From an uncultured Spirochaetales bacterium (GTDB taxonomy: Bacteria > Myxococcota_A > UBA9160 > JAFDET01), in assembly GCA_964442285.1 (NCBI GenBank), contig CAYTZH010000005.1, forward strand, positions 9,563 through 73,562: 64,000 nt of DNA, read 5' to 3'. This document shows, in pieces, positions 29,411 through 37,297 of the stretch. A program made the translations under genes and the position numbers. Position 1 is the first letter of the stretch; the number at the start of each line of letters is the position of its first letter. A model generated the notes under the pieces. The model was not told the origin of the DNA. It saw nothing but the letters and a program-made list of their open reading frames with translations, and made no database searches.

Positions 29411-31132
29411 GTGGAAGTCATCCAGCACGACGTCCTCGTCGTCGGCGGCGGGGCGGCGGGAATCCGGGCCGCGATCGCGGCGGTCGAGGCCGACCCCAAC
29501 ATCTCCGTCGCCATGATCTCGAAGGTCTACCCCATGCGCAGCCACACCGTGTCCGCCGAGGGCGGGGCGGCGGCGGTCGCCCGGGACGACGACAACCTCG
29601 AGATGCACGGCTACGACACCGTCAAGGGCTCCGATTTCCTCGGCGACCAGCACGTGATCCAGTTCTTCGTGGAGGACGCTCCCAAGGAGCTCATCCGCAT
29701 GGACCACTGGGGCTGTCCCTGGAGCCGCAACGACGACGGCACCGTCGCCACCCGCGCCTTCGGCGGCATGACCACCAAGCGCACCTGGTTCGCGGCCGAC
29801 AAGGTCGGCTTCCACATGCTCCACACGCTGTTCCAGACCTCCATGAAGTACGACCGCATCGTCCGCTACGACGAGCAGTTCGTGTCGAAGCTGCTGGTGC
29901 AGGACGGCGCGGTCCGCGGCGTGGTGTCCCTGGACGTGCGCGACGGGATCGTGCGGGTCTTCCAGGGTCGGGCGGTGATCCTGGCGACCGGCGGCGCCGG
30001 CCAGGTCTTCCCCTTCACGACCAACGGCAACATCAAGACCGGCGACGGCATGGCGCTCGCCTACCGCATCGGTGTGCCGCTGAAGGACCAGGAGTTCGTC
30101 CAGTACCACCCCACCGGCCTGCCCCGCACCGGCATCCTGATCACCGAGGCCGCGCGGGGCGAGGGCGGTCACCTCAAGAACAGCCAGGGCGAGCGCTTCC
30201 TGGTGGAGTACGACTACGGCGTCGGCACCAAGGCGGAGCTCGGCCCCCGGGACATGATCTCGCGCGCCATCGTCCAGGAGATCCAGGCGGGGCGAGGCAT
30301 CAAGGGCAACTACGGCGAATTCGTGCACCTGGACCTCACCCACCTGGGCGAGGCCAAGATCAACAAGCGGCTGCCCTTCGTGCGCGAGCTGGCGAAGACC
30401 TACATCGGTGTCGACCCGGTGCACGAGCCCATCCCGATCCGCCCGGTGGTGCACTACATGATGGGCGGCGTCGACACGAACATCGACGGCGCGACCGACG
30501 TGCCGGGGCTCTACGCCGCCGGCGAGGTAGCGTGCGTGTCGCTCAACGGCGCCAACCGCTTGGGCTCCAATTCGCTCACCGAGTGCCTGGTGTTCGGCGC
30601 GCGCGCGGGCCGCTGCGCGGTGGCCTTCGTCCGCGGTGCGTCCGCCGGCGACGAGGCCGACCTGCGGCGCCAGGCCGAGGAGGAGGCGGCGCGCATCGAC
30701 GCCCTCCGCGGCCGGCGCGGCAACGGCGAGAAGCTCTCGTCCCTGCGGGCCGAGATGAAGAACGCCATGGAGGAGGGCTGCGGCGTCTACCGCGAGGGTC
30801 CCTCCATGGAAGCGGCCTGTGCCACCCTCCAGGAGCTGAAGAGCCGCTTCGCCGACGTGGGCCTCGACGACAACAGCAAGGTGTTCAACACCGAGATCAT
30901 CGCCGCCCTCGAGCTCGAGAACATGCTCGAGGTGGCCCAGACCGTGGCCGAGTCGGCGGCCCAGCGCGCCGAGTCCCGCGGTGCCCACACCCGCAAGGAC
31001 AACCCCACCCGCGACGACGCCAACTGGCTGCACCACACGCTCTGCCATCGGGATCCGGCCGGCGGCCGTCCGCGCATCGACAAGAAGCCCGTCACCCTGG
31101 GCGTCTGGCAGCCGGAGGAGCGGAAGTACTGA
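29411..31132 (+). CDS. frdA: Fumarate reductase flavoprotein subunit
   Basis: GGGAAG, RSHTVSAEGG (covalent FAD His), QYHPTG, HYMMGG, GANRLGSNSL, ESRGAH. Confidence 0.95.
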   Translation: MEVIQHDVLVVGGGAAGIRAAIAAVEADPNISVAMISKVYPMRSHTVSAEGGAAAVARDDDNLEMHGYDTVKGSDFLGDQHVIQFFVEDAPKELIRMDHWGCPWSRNDDGTVATRAFGGMTTKRTWFAADKVGFHMLHTLFQTSMKYDRIVRYDEQFVSKLLVQDGAVRGVVSLDVRDGIVRVFQGRAVILATGGAGQVFPFTTNGNIKTGDGMALAYRIGVPLKDQEFVQYHPTGLPRTGILITEAARGEGGHLKNSQGERFLVEYDYGVGTKAELGPRDMISRAIVQEIQAGRGIKGNYGEFVHLDLTHLGEAKINKRLPFVRELAKTYIGVDPVHEPIPIRPVVHYMMGGVDTNIDGATDVPGLYAAGEVACVSLNGANRLGSNSLTECLVFGARAGRCAVAFVRGASAGDEADLRRQAEEEAARIDALRGRRGNGEKLSSLRAEMKNAMEEGCGVYREGPSMEAACATLQELKSRFADVGLDDNSKVFNTEIIAALELENMLEVAQTVAESAAQRAESRGAHTRKDNPTRDDANWLHHTLCHRDPAGGRPRIDKKPVTLGVWQPEERKY

Positions 31133-31881
31133 TGAGCGAGGGCCTGCAGAAGAAGACGTTCGTCGTGACCCGGTTCGATCCGGACGTCGACGAAGTGCCC
31201 AAGACCCAGAGCTACGAGATCCCGGTCCGTCCCGACTGGAAGGTGCTCGACGCGCTGAACTACATCAAGGACGAGGTGGATCCCACCCTCTCCCACCGCT
31301 GGTCGTGCCGCATGGCCGTCTGCGGCAGCTGCGGGATGATGGTGGACGGGGAGCCCAAGCTCACCTGCAAGGACAGCCTCGACAACTACGGCGACACCGT
31401 CGAGGTGGCGCCGCTCGCCAACTTCCCGGTGGTGCGCGACCTGGTGGTGGAGCTCGAGGGCTTCATGGAGCGCTTCCAGGCGGTGAAGCCCTGGATCGTG
31501 CGCGCCAAGGAGCGCGCGGTGGAGGAGGGCACCCACCGGCAGTCGCCCCAGGAGCTCGAGGACTTCCGGCAGTTCAGCATGTGCATCAACTGCATGCTCT
31601 GCTACTCGGCGTGCCCGGTGGTGGGCAACGATCCCCACTTCCTGGGGCCGGCCGCCATCGCCCTCGGCCACCGCTACAACCTGGACACCCGCGACGAGGG
31701 CGCCGACGAGCGCAACCGGGTGTTCCTCGAAGAGGGCGGAGTCTTCTCCTGCTCCTACGCCAACGAGTGCAGCGAGGTCTGCCCGAAGAACGTGGATCCC
31801 GCGGCGGCGGTCCAGCAGTCCAAGGCGCTCTCGCTCGTCGAGTGGGCGAAGGGGCTGGTGCTCCCGCGAGGAGGCGAGTAG
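31132..31881 (+). CDS. frdB: Fumarate reductase iron-sulfur subunit
   Basis: CRMAVCGSC..C, CINCMLCYSACP, CSYANECSEVCP. Confidence 0.95.
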   Translation: MSEGLQKKTFVVTRFDPDVDEVPKTQSYEIPVRPDWKVLDALNYIKDEVDPTLSHRWSCRMAVCGSCGMMVDGEPKLTCKDSLDNYGDTVEVAPLANFPVVRDLVVELEGFMERFQAVKPWIVRAKERAVEEGTHRQSPQELEDFRQFSMCINCMLCYSACPVVGNDPHFLGPAAIALGHRYNLDTRDEGADERNRVFLEEGGVFSCSYANECSEVCPKNVDPAAAVQQSKALSLVEWAKGLVLPRGGE

Positions 31882-32324
31882 TGGCGCGCACGGCCCATCC
31901 GCAGTCCATGCAGCCGTCGACGCCGGGTCGCACGCGCACGGCGGCGGCGCGCATGCCCCACAAGTTCCCCTCGGCTGGACGCTACCTGTCCTACACCCTG
32001 TTCGGCGTCACCTCCTTCTTCTACCTGGCCGTGAGCCTGATGGTGCTGCGGGCGGCCTGGGCGCTGGGCGACGGCCGGGCGGCCTGGGAGGCGATGCTCG
32101 CGGACTTCGCCAACCCGATCTACCTGGGCTTCCACGCCCTGACGCTGCTGGTGTTCGTCTGGGCCGGCTGGCGCTTCCTGATCGTGCTGGCCGCCAAGGC
32201 CAACCCGCCGAAGATCGGGCCCCTGCGGCGGCCGCCCCTGGCGGTCTTCCCGCCGCTGTTCGGCGCGCTCTGGCTGGGCGCCACGGTCGTCGCCGTGGTC
32301 GTGCTCTGGGGGATCTTCCCGTGA
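31881..32324 (+). CDS. frdC: Fumarate reductase membrane anchor subunit C-like
   Basis: Three hydrophobic helices; position after frdB. Confidence 0.75.
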   Translation: MARTAHPQSMQPSTPGRTRTAAARMPHKFPSAGRYLSYTLFGVTSFFYLAVSLMVLRAAWALGDGRAAWEAMLADFANPIYLGFHALTLLVFVWAGWRFLIVLAAKANPPKIGPLRRPPLAVFPPLFGALWLGATVVAVVVLWGIFP

Positions 32325-32674
32325 AGGGCTTCGTCGCGCGCATCGAGCCGGGAATCTGGATGCTCTTCGGTGCCGGCTTCTTCGTCGGCTCGCTGCTCGT
32401 CCCGGCCTGGCTGCTGGTGGTGGGGGTCGCGGCGCCGCTCGGCTGGACCGACGGCCTGGCCTGGGAGCGGGCCTACGCGCTGGCCTCGAATCCCCTGGGA
32501 CGGCTGGTGATCCTGGCGCTGATCGTGTTCCCGCTCTGGAACGCCGCCAACCACCTGCGCCACTTCCTGATCGACCTGGGCGGCTACGATCGCGACGGCG
32601 CCATGGCGCCGCTGATCTACGCCGCCGCCGCCGTCCTGTCGGTCGTGGCCGTCGTGGCCGTCGTCCGCATCTAG
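32321..32674 (+). CDS. frdD: Fumarate reductase membrane anchor subunit D
   Basis: EPGIWMLFGAG and PLWNAANHLRHFLIDL, resembling FrdD; three TM helices. Confidence 0.85.
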   Translation: MKGFVARIEPGIWMLFGAGFFVGSLLVPAWLLVVGVAAPLGWTDGLAWERAYALASNPLGRLVILALIVFPLWNAANHLRHFLIDLGGYDRDGAMAPLIYAAAAVLSVVAVVAVVRI

Positions 32675-33618
32675 CGGATGATGATCGAGGGCTGCTGGGG
32701 CGGGCTCGTCGGGCCGCCGCCGCTGCCGAGGCAGCCGATCCGCTTCTCGGACACCACCAGGTGGTCGCGATAGCGGACGTTCTGCTGGGGGGAGCCCCCG
32801 TTCCAGTAGTTCTCGAGGGTGATGGCGTTGAAGCCGTAGTCACCCCAGGTCTCGACCCAGTTCAGCCCCTGGAGCCGGGCCTGGGCCTGGCCGTCCACCC
32901 AGAACTCGAACTCGCCGTCGCTCTGGCCCGGCGTGTTGAGCTTGGCGCGGGCCTCGATGCAGAACCAGCGGTCCACGCTCTGGGGTCCGAAGATCGAGGT
33001 GCTCCCCTGGGTGCTGCCGGTCCAGCCCGCGTCGATGGCGTTGTTGCCCCCCAGCCAGCGCAGGTTGGCGAAGTCGTTGTACTGGGTGGTGGCGAGCTTG
33101 CCATCGTTGCCGATGCCGCTCACGGGGTCGAGCACCAGGTGCGACTTTCCCCCCGGCCAGAGGTGGGCGAGGGCCGCCTGGGCCCAGCTCCCGCTGGCAA
33201 AGACGTAGATCGACGAGAGCTTGTAGGGGTTGCCGCTCCAGCCGGGCCCCGTGCGGATGTACTCGCGCCAGTAGATCTCGCGGAACTGCCGGCCCGCGTG
33301 GCTCTGGGGCGGGTAGAAGCCGGGGGGCGTCGTTCCGAAGGTCCGGGTCATCCAGCCGGCCCCCACCTGGCCCGACTTGTAGGTCACCCGCATGGCATGG
33401 CCGCCGCCGACGCCCTCGCCGGCCACGCGGACGAAGCTGCCGCCGGCCTGGTTGTGCTCCACCCAGCGGGAGGAGACCGGCGACGGGTCCTCGTAGTCCT
33501 CGCAGAACAGGACCGCCGGGTCGGGCGAGGGGCCCCCCGGGCAGCCCGGCTCCGCTGCGGTCGCCGGCGGGCCGGCGAACAGGACACTCAGGGCGACGAG
33601 GGCAGTCCGGAATCTCAT
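32671..33618 (-). CDS. Secreted protein, polysaccharide-lyase/concanavalin-like beta-sandwich, with Gly/Pro C-terminal tail
   Basis: GGAGG RBS; signal peptide; FCEDYE, IYWREY, RWFCIEA, NTPGQSDGEFEFWVDG, YRDHLVVS; ends GGGPTSPPQQPSIIIR. Confidence 0.8.
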   Translation of the reverse strand: MRFRTALVALSVLFAGPPATAAEPGCPGGPSPDPAVLFCEDYEDPSPVSSRWVEHNQAGGSFVRVAGEGVGGGHAMRVTYKSGQVGAGWMTRTFGTTPPGFYPPQSHAGRQFREIYWREYIRTGPGWSGNPYKLSSIYVFASGSWAQAALAHLWPGGKSHLVLDPVSGIGNDGKLATTQYNDFANLRWLGGNNAIDAGWTGSTQGSTSIFGPQSVDRWFCIEARAKLNTPGQSDGEFEFWVDGQAQARLQGLNWVETWGDYGFNAITLENYWNGGSPQQNVRYRDHLVVSEKRIGCLGSGGGPTSPPQQPSIIIR

Positions 33619-33638: not shown

Positions 33639-33679
33639 CTATCGGCTGGAACCCGGTCCTGGCTGTAAGCGCGATCACG
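33639..33679 (-). promoter_or_regulatory. CRP-like box (CGTGA-N6-TTACA, 33664-33679) plus sigma28-like -10 GCCGATAG (33639-33646)
   Basis: 8/10 match to TGTGA-N6-TCACA, in about the class II position relative to the -10. Confidence 0.5.
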
Positions 33680-34910
33680 TTTTCCGACCCCGATCCAGGG
33701 CCTCGGCGTAGGCGGCCTCGAGCTGCCGGCCCACCACGGGCCAGGCGAAGCGCTCCGCCACGAAGGCCCGGCCCCGGGCCGCCAGGGCCGCCGCGGTCCC
33801 CGGATCGTCGCCGAGCCGCCGGATCTGGCGGACGAACTCGGCCGGGGTCTCGGCGGCCAGGTAGTGGGCCTCCTCCGCCAGCTCGAGCCCCTCCACCGCG
33901 AGCCGGGTGGCGACCAGGGGGCGGCCGGCCGCCAGCGCATCGAGGACCTTGAGCCGGGTCCCGCCGCCGTCCCGGATGGGACAGACGTAGACGGCGGCCC
34001 GGTGCAGGTGCGGACGCACGTCGTCGACGAAGCCCGGCGCGGAGATCCGGCGGTCCCGCTCGGCGGCCGCCAGCAGCTCCGGCGCCGGATCCGCGCCGAC
34101 GACCTCGAGATCCCAGCCCGGGTCGGCCGCGGCGAGGGCCGGCCAGATTTCCGCCACCAGGAAGCGCACGGCCTCGCGGTTCGGGTACCAGCTCATGCCC
34201 CCGGCGAAGATCAGCCGCCGGGCGGGGGGGGCGGCGGATGCGGGCGGGCGGAAGAAGTCGAGATCGACGCCGTTGGGCACGACGGCCAGGGCCACGTCGC
34301 CCACCGCCGCGCGCAGGCGGTCGCCGTCGAGGGAGGAGACCACCAGGTTCGCGGCGGCCGCGGGGCAGGCCCGGGCCTCCAGCCGCGCCAGCTTGCGGGC
34401 CTCCAGGGCGAACACGCCGCGCAGGGGTGAGCGGCCGGCGGTGGCGGCCCGGCGGGCCATCATGTGGGACTCCACGTTGTGATGGTTCAGGGCGATCGGC
34501 ACGCCGCGGAAGGCCGCGGCGTAGGGGTGCAGGCCGAGGGTGTCCACGTGGACCAGATCGAAGTCGCCCCCGGCGGCGAGCGCGCGGGCCCGGTCGGCGA
34601 AGGCGCGGCTGCGCAGCCAGTTGACATCGTAGGGCGTGGAGCGCAGCAGCCCGCGGGCCACCATCGAGGCCCAGCGCCAGCGCGAGGCGTCGGCGGGGAT
34701 GGGGTGGACCTCCACCGATGCGCAGAACGTGCGCAGCTCCGCGCGGGCGGCCTCGACGTCGTCGGGCGTCGGCAGCACGGCGCGCTGGTTGAGGGCCAGC
34801 AGCTGGACCTCGTGGCGCGCGGCGGCCTCCCGCAGGAGGTGGTAGGACCGCTGCAGCACGCCCCCGCGCGGCGGCCACGGCACCAGGTGCGAGAGCCACA
34901 GAAGCCGCAT
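33675..34910 (-). CDS. Glycosyltransferase family 4
   Basis: PWPPRGG, HHNVES, VPNGVD, GGTRLKVLDALAAG. Confidence 0.93.
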   Translation of the reverse strand: MRLLWLSHLVPWPPRGGVLQRSYHLLREAAARHEVQLLALNQRAVLPTPDDVEAARAELRTFCASVEVHPIPADASRWRWASMVARGLLRSTPYDVNWLRSRAFADRARALAAGGDFDLVHVDTLGLHPYAAAFRGVPIALNHHNVESHMMARRAATAGRSPLRGVFALEARKLARLEARACPAAAANLVVSSLDGDRLRAAVGDVALAVVPNGVDLDFFRPPASAAPPARRLIFAGGMSWYPNREAVRFLVAEIWPALAAADPGWDLEVVGADPAPELLAAAERDRRISAPGFVDDVRPHLHRAAVYVCPIRDGGGTRLKVLDALAAGRPLVATRLAVEGLELAEEAHYLAAETPAEFVRQIRRLGDDPGTAAALAARGRAFVAERFAWPVVGRQLEAAYAEALDRGRKT

Positions 34911-34999
34911 GGCGGCGAAGCCTACCGCAGGCCGGGGCGTTCGCGGCCTTGTCCCGGGCAGGCGCGCTGGGTACGCTCCTCCCCTCCCCGGAGGCTTTC

Positions 35000-36091
35000 G
35001 TGGCGCTCCTGCGCGGATCCCGAGAGATCACGCTTCGCCTCCTCCTGGTCGCCGCATCGGGACTCGCCGTCCTGCTCGTCGGGGAGGCCGTCTGCCGCGC
35101 CTTCTTTCCGGACGAGCGGCTCCGCTACGCGCCGGACGACGCGGCCCTCTACATCATGCGGCCCAACCAGAGGGGCGTGCTGCAGCTCGCGAACGGGCGC
35201 CCCACGCCGCCGGTCCACATCAACAGCCTGGGCTTCCGGGGCGGAGAGCCGCCGCCCGATCCTGCGCGGCGCCTGCTCGTCCTCGGCGACTCCTTCGCCT
35301 TCGGCCAGGGCGTGGCGGAGGACGAGACGCTCGTGGCGCGTCTCGACCGCGCCCTCGGCGCCGAGTTGGCGGCCGTGAACGGGTCCCAGCCCGGCTACGG
35401 CCTGTTCCAGATGCGGGCGACCCTCGACCGCGTCGGGCCGTCGCTCCGGCCCGAGCACGTGGTGGTGATACTCTGGCAGGGAGACCTGCTCCGCCAGCCG
35501 CCGAGCGACGAGGAGCGCGCCCGCGTGCACCGGGCCAGCCGCCTCTTCGACCTGGTGAAGACGAGCGTCTTCGTCACCCACGTCTACCGCCGCTTCGAGC
35601 GCCTCGTGGCCAGCCACGGCGTGTACCTGCTCGACCTGCGGGTGGGCGAGCTGGAGGTGCCGGCTCCCGACGATCCCGAGCGGGTGGTGCGGGCCTACCT
35701 CCAGGGCTGGGAGGCCGACCGGCCCCGGCTGGCGGGCCTGGTGGAGCGCGCCCGGAGCCTCGGGGCGGGCACGAGCGTCGTCCTCTGGACCCGGGAGGGC
35801 TACGCCGGCCCCGGCGAGGCCGGGCTCGCCGGACGGCTCGAGGCGGAGCTCGCGGCGTTCGCCCGAGATCGAGACGTTTCCGTGACGTCCCTGCGTCGCG
35901 TCCTCGGCGCGCACCCGCGCGGCGCTCTGCTGATCCCGGGTGACGGCCACCCGACCGCCTTCGCCCACTGCCTGGTGGCGCAGCACGTGCTCGGGGCGCT
36001 GGCGTCGCACGGGTATGCTGCGGTCGAGCCCATCCGGTGTTCGCCGGGCCCCGAGGGGTCCGCGTCGACGGGAAACGCCGGGTCACGCTGA
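35000..36091 (+). CDS. Membrane-anchored SGNH/GDSL hydrolase family protein
   Basis: GGAGG RBS; TM anchor; INSLGFRG, LGDSFAFG, NGSQPGYG, DGHPTAFAH. Confidence 0.88.
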   Translation: MALLRGSREITLRLLLVAASGLAVLLVGEAVCRAFFPDERLRYAPDDAALYIMRPNQRGVLQLANGRPTPPVHINSLGFRGGEPPPDPARRLLVLGDSFAFGQGVAEDETLVARLDRALGAELAAVNGSQPGYGLFQMRATLDRVGPSLRPEHVVVILWQGDLLRQPPSDEERARVHRASRLFDLVKTSVFVTHVYRRFERLVASHGVYLLDLRVGELEVPAPDDPERVVRAYLQGWEADRPRLAGLVERARSLGAGTSVVLWTREGYAGPGEAGLAGRLEAELAAFARDRDVSVTSLRRVLGAHPRGALLIPGDGHPTAFAHCLVAQHVLGALASHGYAAVEPIRCSPGPEGSASTGNAGSR

Positions 36092-36114
36092 CGCCGCCCG
36101 ACGAAGGGCGGTAC

Positions 36115-36180
36115 GGTGAGGTCCGTCACATCCGATCCGGCCGAGTTGAACGATCAAGGTCGTCGGGCGCACGCCGAACC
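36115..36180 (+). promoter_or_regulatory. CRP-like box GGTGA-N6-TCACA (36115-36130) plus sigma28-like promoter TCAA-N15-GCCGAACC (36154-36180)
   Basis: 9/10 CRP match; sigma28 spacing exactly 15 nt. Confidence 0.6.
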
Positions 36181-36265: not shown

Positions 36266-37297
36266 ATGAAGGAGCTCCGCAAGGCAGGTCTGCTGGTCGC
36301 GCTCATCGCCGTCGCGATGGGGGCCGGGACCGCGCAGGCCCAGGAGCAGCGGTGCAGCGACCTCGGAGCCGACTGCTTCTGCTCCGAGCCCATGAACACG
36401 AACCAGTACAAGGTGTACCCGGGGAACTCGGGGTTCTTCGGACTGAACGAGCCCAACTCGAAGCGCTGCCCGGGTCAGGTCGGCAACGACGGCTACATCT
36501 TCTACGACGGCCGCGGCGACCCGAGCAAGTCGAACAACAAGATCCATCCGGTCTCTGCGGCCGGCCTCGACCTGCCGCCCGAGGTCCAGTGGGTGTGGCG
36601 GAACACGTCCAGGAGCGGCGTATCCAACGCCACGACCCACTTCGACGTCATGCGGGACTCCAGCATCAAGAAGGTGTGCTGGCGCTACTACGTCCGGTAC
36701 TCCAACGACTACGTGGGCGACGAGACGCCGAGCTGCAACGCCAACAAGGCCCACCAGGCGGCGTTCAAGGGTGGCGGTCCGCTGCTCCACGCGGACAACA
36801 TGGATCACGTGGGCTCCAACTCGCAGCCGAAGATCCGCATGGACTTCTTCGACCGCGGCAACGGGCACCGGGTGTTCCTGCTCTCGGGCAACGGCTCCCT
36901 GCGCGAGTCGGACTGCTCCAACGAGTGGTGTCGCGTGGAGACCTGCATGGACGGCAACTTCGACAGCGGCACGGACTACTACGTCTGGAGCGAGTGGGCC
37001 GGCGTGGCCTCGGGCAAGACCTACACCTTCCCGCGCCAGTACGTGGGCAACAACCGCGACGGCGGGGGCATGACCGGCACCCAGATCAACATGTACCGCC
37101 AGAGCGACGGCTCGCCGGGCTGCCTCGGCCACAAGTGGATCTCCCACCTGATGGAGGCCCGCTTCGGCCATCGCGACCCGTCGGTCACGATCGGTCCCGC
37201 CTGCGAGATGGAGGGGACCTGCGGCGGTCAGGCCGGCGGCGGCGGCGGGGGCGGTGGCGCGCTGCCGCCTCCGGCGCGGCCCGAGCTGCTGCCCTAG
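36266..37297 (+). CDS. Secreted Cys-rich beta-sandwich protein with Gly/Pro C-terminal tail (alternative start 36242)
   Basis: Signal peptide ending AQA; FCSEPM, VCWRYY, EWCRVET, WISHLM; ends GGGGGGGALPPPARPELLP. Confidence 0.82.
   Translation: MKELRKAGLLVALIAVAMGAGTAQAQEQRCSDLGADCFCSEPMNTNQYKVYPGNSGFFGLNEPNSKRCPGQVGNDGYIFYDGRGDPSKSNNKIHPVSAAGLDLPPEVQWVWRNTSRSGVSNATTHFDVMRDSSIKKVCWRYYVRYSNDYVGDETPSCNANKAHQAAFKGGGPLLHADNMDHVGSNSQPKIRMDFFDRGNGHRVFLLSGNGSLRESDCSNEWCRVETCMDGNFDSGTDYYVWSEWAGVASGKTYTFPRQYVGNNRDGGGMTGTQINMYRQSDGSPGCLGHKWISHLMEARFGHRDPSVTIGPACEMEGTCGGQAGGGGGGGGALPPPARPELLP

Follow-up and report, generated by a model that had tools for sequence, protein, structure and literature searches.

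The genes here called A and B lie in a 64,000-nucleotide stretch of contig CAYTZH010000005.1 (the window) from an uncultured bacterium, and each is preceded by a CRP-type box followed at a fixed distance by a sigma28-type -10 element. The geometry common to the two genes is GTGA-N6-TCAC, then 19-20 nt, then CCGAT, referred to below as the composite. This element is real and is conserved within the order of uncultured Myxococcota to which the host belongs, and it is class II CRP promoter-like with a sigma28-type -10; activation, the protein bound, its ligand and the sigma factor used are predicted from the sequences. No paper on a CRP-type box standing in place of the sigma28 -35 at genes for exported proteins was found in the literature searched, which left most subscription papers uncovered, and it would seem likely that the arrangement serves activation.

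The four motif strings named in an earlier reading of the window (the original prediction) are all present. At gene A the predicted class II-like arrangement, with the box overlapping the -35, fits the N19 class that is conserved in homologous promoters. The TGA in one half-site of this box (from 33679) is the stop codon of the neighbouring GT4 glycosyltransferase gene, an overlap against which the prediction had cautioned. At gene B the box had been paired with a more distant -10 and called class I-like. A closer octamer absent from that reading, AACGATCA, lies in the same register as the -10s of homologous promoters. Its first two letters are degenerate compared with GCCGAT(AA), and the homologues L031, L033 and L039 have -10s that are degenerate in much the same way in an identical register. 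With AACGATCA as the predicted -10 in the conserved register, both window promoters are class II-like and the assignment of gene B is corrected to this class.

Homologues of A and B were gathered by protein search and not by their -10. Under a strict criterion (GTGA-N6-TCAC-N19/20-CCGAT with at most one mismatch in the 13 core letters) the composite is present in 13 of 17 homologous upstream regions, or 11 of 15 without the window, as against 11 of the 2564 upstream regions of the host genome (G000). Excluded from the 15 were L035, which has no upstream DNA, and the partial, distant matches L010 and L013. Each of twelve shifted spacings was found in 0-1 of the 17. The sites span five families and the spacers between them have diverged; the composite was found in five of six homologues read once the spacing had been fixed. 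The box core GTGA/TCAC is conserved, with the outer T and A weakly preferred. Since only 4 of 14 boxes (behind three upstream gene types) overlap a stop codon, and 10 do not, this overlap fails to explain the box. Conservation in homologous promoters, one of the checks put forward with the original prediction, comes out in its favour. A genome-wide scan for co-positioned motifs finds a loose pairing of the box with GCCGA[TA] at 19 of the 2564 host upstream regions, and both window genes have the fixed-spacing form, more than chance would give. Outside the order the composite is essentially lacking from gene A homologues (one loose match in 70 upstream regions).

Across the order the exact composite pattern gives 546 matches in 174 of 193 genomes. 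Shifted spacings, used as the control, give 105 matches at N25/26 and 84 at N29/30, which is the background level, so that the excess is five-fold and spacing-specific. A reversed-pattern control was near zero yet uninformative because TAG words are rare at 73% GC. There are 13 matches in the seven genomes of the sister order, and the remainder of the phylum (202 genomes) gives 148 that are mostly coding-looking; outside the class the composite is at background. The analysis covered 131 of the 150 order-wide sites listed; the other 19 were mostly recurrent coding-looking matches, duplicates or sites already seen. Intergenic sites number 108 of the 131 (73 N20 and 35 N19), a proportion that could drop to 108/150, and 93 sites have a gene within 400 nt downstream. 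In a comparison with control sites, 18/30 composite and 5/20 control sites face a gene.

The proposal that a CRP-type box and a sigma28-type -10 mark genes for exported proteins holds across the order. By a crude hydrophobicity rule, signal peptides are found in 68 of the 93 downstream genes, compared with 711 of 2517 background genes (28%) and 24 of 79 genes behind free-standing sigma28 promoters; using called starts only, the figures are 49/93 and 624/2517 for targets and background. The 93 targets fall into 56 clusters, and several host-genome members of target families also bear the composite. No Pfam match was obtained for 26 of 50 target representatives, while the others include PKD/Ig proteins, GH44, alginate lyase, OmpA, type II secretion system protein C, SLT, thioredoxin, PilZ, TPR, DUF928 and cNMP-binding proteins. 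The commonest target (8/93) is a family of predicted lipoproteins of about 140-180 aa with no Pfam match. The composite is mostly lacking from the PEP-CTERM-like genes of the host (one or two weak matches in 31). The regulon is not set by the proline tail that ends A and B either: only 6 of the 93 downstream proteins fit even a loosely defined tail, contrary to the expectation that tail-bearing secreted genes would make up the regulon.

The host genome also contains free-standing sigma28-type promoters. Of 1243 upstream NCCGA[TA] sites, 66 have TCAA 16 nt ahead of the G and 14 have it 15 nt ahead, with 0-5 sites at other gaps, giving about 80 promoters with the consensus CTCAAG-N15-GCCGAT. The genes behind them, in our reading, include many response regulators and PilZ, FHA, TPR and membrane proteins. 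The composite and this class share the same -10. At the free-standing promoters the -35 takes the form TCAAG and is mostly one base further away; at the composite the TAAAG -35 at 15-nt spacing is missing and the box is in its place. A candidate sigma factor for such promoters is available, in agreement with the original prediction, as the host encodes one FliA (280 bits on TIGR02479, nearest to WhiG among solved structures) as well as five CRP-HTH proteins. FliA is 83-93% identical over 19 genomes and was found in 169 of the 193. It appears to be largely uncoupled from the flagellum because 96 of 101 good genomes have FliA and 40 of these 101 have flagellin, no PF04316 (FlgM) match was found in the host, and both host flagellin genes bear TGGCA-N6-TTGCA upstream, which we take to be a sigma54-type promoter. 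The fliD-like gene has a TCAA promoter, and the host does not display a circuit of FlgM and sigma28-driven flagellin. The FliA gene lies outside the flagellar cluster and is kept in genomes without flagellin.

The same box is found at sigma70-type promoters. Among 57 perfect upstream boxes in the host, 11 have YAnnnT exactly 22 nt past TCAC, compared with about 0.6 at each of the other gaps, so that the box would seem to act as an activator site. Four perfect boxes with a class II-spaced sigma70-type -10 precede a tssB-like gene of the type VI secretion system, two hcp-like genes and a bactofilin-like gene, all named from our reading of the sequences. The same kind of CRP may control type VI secretion, since perfect class II boxes precede the tssB-like and hcp-like genes.

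Among the five host proteins with cNMP-binding (cyclic nucleotide-binding) and Crp-HTH domains, the likely activator of the composite is a 220-aa protein encoded on contig C10 (C10 CRP), whose nearest solved structures are CRP/FNR-family regulators. Its recognition helix, RETVTR, fits the R-E-x-x-x-R form expected of a CRP and is invariant in 23 of 23 orthologues, and the G, E, R and S that presumably bind the cyclic nucleotide phosphate are kept in 21-23 of them. An orthologue is present in 150 of the 193 genomes; genus g40 has none, and has 7 composite matches in 7 genomes. The C10 CRP gene lies in an operon of polysaccharide export and precursor genes, between a manC-like gene and a PAS kinase, response regulator and TPR gene. 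The operon, in which most genes were named from our reading of their sequences, resembles PEP-CTERM system clusters, and the same gene neighbourhood is seen at most of 30 loci. Tandem boxes of the GTGAA-N4-TTCAC type lie between divergent genes at two other host loci, and a second CRP gene adjoining the pair on contig C33 suggests another CRP paralogue with its own sites.

The original prediction had the regulon fed by the CHASE2 cyclase of the window, which keeps its catalytic residues and those presumed to specify ATP. It is, however, one of 11 class III cyclases, no composite motif lies upstream of its operon and no linkage of cyclase and CRP genes was seen, leaving this part unsupported. 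Two genomes have the composite between the genes for a class III cyclase and a DUF928 protein, a position that provides a loose link to cyclic nucleotide signalling; in the host the corresponding gene pair overlaps and has no composite. Four composite targets are related small proteins of which the representative has a cNMP-binding domain.

It is probable that at A and B the composite is a class II promoter at which a CRP-family dimer would sit over the -35 position in GTGA-N6-TCAC-N19/20-CCGAT and recruit RNA polymerase carrying a sigma28 of the WhiG/FliA type. With the box in place of the TCAAG -35, little transcription would be expected from these promoters before the activator is bound. 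The likely activator, C10 CRP, is probably responsive to a cyclic nucleotide and would also serve sigma70 promoters at the same spacing, while the likely output would be secreted carbohydrate-binding or -cleaving proteins, lipoproteins and envelope proteins.

Of eight E. coli promoters, aer and trg alone show activation of sigma28 by CRP, which acts there from -49.5 and fails to activate from -41.5 or -44.5; in aer numbering these positions correspond to TCAC-N30, N22 and N25 to CCGA (PMC2859248, available in part). The N19/20 spacing corresponds to -38.5/-39.5, one helical turn below -49.5 and outside the constructs described in the available part of that paper. Both systems combine a CRP-type palindrome with a GCCGA-type -10 for a FliA-family sigma, but the composite falls outside the aer/trg type: there the palindrome lies above an intact TAAAG -35 (PMC2859248, in part), whereas here the box overlaps the -35. 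The N29/30 spacing of the -49.5 type is at background here, and the targets are mostly exported proteins and not chemoreceptors. A FliA-family sigma uncoupled from flagella recalls WhiG of Streptomyces, a non-flagellar sigma28 held by the anti-sigma RsiG and c-di-GMP, for which no CRP class II activation was found in the literature search. With the -10 hexamer in its usual position, sigma70 class II CRP promoters resemble the composite in having 24 nt from TCAC to the conserved -10 A, and the host has such promoters too, but their -10 is TAnnnT where the composite has CCGAT. Their CRP site is centred at -41.5, overlapping the -35, and sigma28 elements lie 2-3 bp closer than those of sigma70 (PMC2859248, in part). 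Clr of Sinorhizobium meliloti is a further CRP-family regulator that acts on polysaccharide and surface functions where the genome has CHASE2 cyclases, though the Clr box is TGTT-N8-AACA-like and the available part of PMC5498481 makes no link to sigma28; the CHASE2 cyclase here, moreover, is one of many and unlinked to a CRP gene.

The composite might instead be an ordinary class II CRP promoter for sigma70, its -10 having drifted to GATnnT, with sigma28 uninvolved or acting at some sites only. This is raised by the A of CCGAT, which in N20 sites lies 24 nt past TCAC as in the sigma70-type sites of the host. T at the sigma70 -7 position is also enriched in N20 sites (27/73 compared with 12/107), so that some composites may be sigma70 or dual promoters. 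It is nevertheless unlikely as a general account: the -7 T is missing from 46/73 N20 and 26/35 N19 sites, all 13 distinct homologous sites retain C-G ahead of the -10 A while the -7 T is found in two, the free-standing TCAAG class has the very same -10, and at -12 the sigma70-type sites of the host carry C or T instead of G. As the box overlaps the -35 position it could also be an operator, where a dimer of the CRP family or of another kind would repress sigma28 promoters, and this would suit the finding that E. coli CRP in a class II location gave no activation of sigma28 (PMC2859248, in part). Those constructs were, however, 2-3 bp off the spacing found here, and no TCAAG consensus is left under or past the box in N20 sites, so a repressor would have little to act on. 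Nor would a repressor site be expected to hold to a 2-bp spacing window, and such an operator is very unlikely.

For gene B alone, transcription from TCAA-N15-GCCGAACC with a class I-like box, fed by the nearby CHASE2 cyclase, is improbable. The TCAAG...GCCGAA promoter does belong to a real class, boxes upstream of TCAA promoters occur 90 times in the order, the homologues L003 and L004 have free-standing promoters and the cyclase appears catalytically intact. On the other hand, the 62-nt overall spacing is seen once among these 90 matches, the class II composite is present in 7 of 10 gene B homologues by the strict criterion, and the cyclase is 22 kb away. Chance matches in a 73% GC genome, aided by the stop codon, would account for the four stop-codon overlaps and for the background share of the order-wide matches, but hardly for a composite that is conserved while its spacers have diverged and that shows a spacing-specific excess; this explanation is scarcely credible.

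Besides the enrichment of the -7 T and the failure of class II sites in E. coli, several points weigh against activation of sigma28 promoters by C10 CRP. The host genome on its own gives a modest excess, with 10 sites at N19/20 compared with 7 at N29 and 0-4 at most of the gaps; for one of the 10 a sigma70-type reading is the better one. Background makes up about 100 of the 546 order-wide matches, many of them within coding sequence, and the counts overstate independence because the genomes are kin. Gene calls and signal peptides came from simple scripts of our own. Control sites are often intergenic too (10/20, compared with 21/30 composite sites), and intergenic location was rejected as the sole discriminator between true and control sites. 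The C-helix T/N presumed to specify the base is kept in 8 of the 23 C10 CRP orthologues, and two other CRPs, with a RESVN helix, could bind such boxes. The co-occurrence of C10 CRP and composite is imperfect, since family f7 mostly lacks a C10 CRP orthologue (2/17) but has 44 composite matches in 17 genomes; all three f7 genomes checked have a 37-41% identical CRP with RETxTR.

A wider model, to which we would give an even chance, has sigma28 in this class of Myxococcota as a global surface and signalling sigma off the flagellum, with the cyclic-nucleotide CRP of the export operon standing in for the -35, switching on an exported sub-regulon by true class II activation and also driving sigma70 promoters at identical spacing. 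The class II failure in E. coli would then reflect a misplacement by 2-3 bp and not a rule. Control of sigma28 promoters is generally considered to act mainly via the sigma factor itself. In the best-studied activator case CRP needs an unusual -49.5 site and has no class II function, whereas hundreds of natural promoters here have class II geometry with respect to a sigma28 -10, which supplies an exact spacing that can be tested in E. coli. The composite also outlines, in an uncultured order, a regulon whose exported proteins are for the most part without annotation, and it points to a sigma28 working without flagella.

Table 1. Coordinates of the features discussed. Positions without a contig or locus prefix are those of the window; G000 is the host genome.
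Feature	Position	Strand	Remarks
Gene A, 315 aa	32671..33618	-	predicted signal peptide, proline tail; likely target
CRP-type box, promoter A, CGTGA-TCGCGC-TTACA	33679-33664	-	sequence checked; conserved in homologous promoters
Sigma28-type -10, promoter A, GCCGATAG	33646-33639	-	17 nt past 16-nt box; TCAC-N19-CCGAT class
GT4 glycosyltransferase gene	33675..34910	-	stop codon inside box A
Gene B, 343 aa	36266..37297	+	alternative start 36242; predicted signal peptide, proline tail; likely target
CRP-type box, promoter B, GGTGA-GGTCCG-TCACA	36115-36130	+	wholly intergenic
Predicted box-paired -10, promoter B, AACGATCA	36149-36156	+	18 nt past 16-nt box; TCAC-N20 class
Possible second, free-standing sigma28-type promoter, TCAA(G)-N15-GCCGAACC	36154-36180	+	minor 15-nt spacing class
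C-terminal tails of A and B	32671-32700, 37270-37297		P-x-x-P-x-hydrophobic
Succinate dehydrogenase/fumarate reductase-like operon	29411-32674		four genes
CHASE2 cyclase	58.2-60.4 kb		class III
Lipoprotein-family target loci	G000:C27:11901-12332, C7:87832-88194; L136, L147, L149, L152, L161, L165, L169, L174
WhiG-like FliA gene	G000:C30:60963-61730 (L315)
C10 CRP gene	G000:C10:91652-92314		220 aa
Polysaccharide-export operon	G000:C10:78779-97584 (L269)
Perfect boxes with sigma70-type -10	G000:C2:171170, C45:14732, C51:28163, C31:8590		class II-spaced
Tandem boxes	G000:C33:7810-7958, C41:39677-39843		GTGAA-N4-TTCAC type
Second CRP gene	G000:C33:9192		adjoins C33 box pair
Composite between cyclase and DUF928 genes	L204:1992-2045, L229:1969-2035
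Cyclase/DUF928 pair of the host	G000:C1:162623-165267		overlapping, no composite

The nearest relatives of the host genome are titled Myxococcota or delta-proteobacterial metagenome-assembled genomes. Our own gene caller puts A and B in a polysaccharide locus alongside GT4, GT2, SGNH and O-antigen-ligase-like genes. Gene A has a weak match to polysaccharide lyase 14 (PF21294, E 1e-4, under the cut-off), and its family gave no match to the sequences of solved structures. Gene B is predicted to have a jelly-roll lectin/lyase-like fold in a low-confidence model (pLDDT 43), the fold matches indicating a jelly roll only; both genes thus point weakly to polysaccharide-lyase-14-like jelly rolls. They had been described as paralogues, but no sequence homology between them could be demonstrated (BLASTP E 0.18; hhalign profile-profile probability 38%, N-terminus only) and any paralogy would be remote at best. 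The C-terminal P-x-x-P-x-hydrophobic tail is common to A, B and most of their homologues in the order and is missing from 73 homologues outside it; it is possibly a sorting or binding signal. The four-gene succinate dehydrogenase/fumarate reductase-like operon is convergent with gene A and is syntenic in a second genome (G002).

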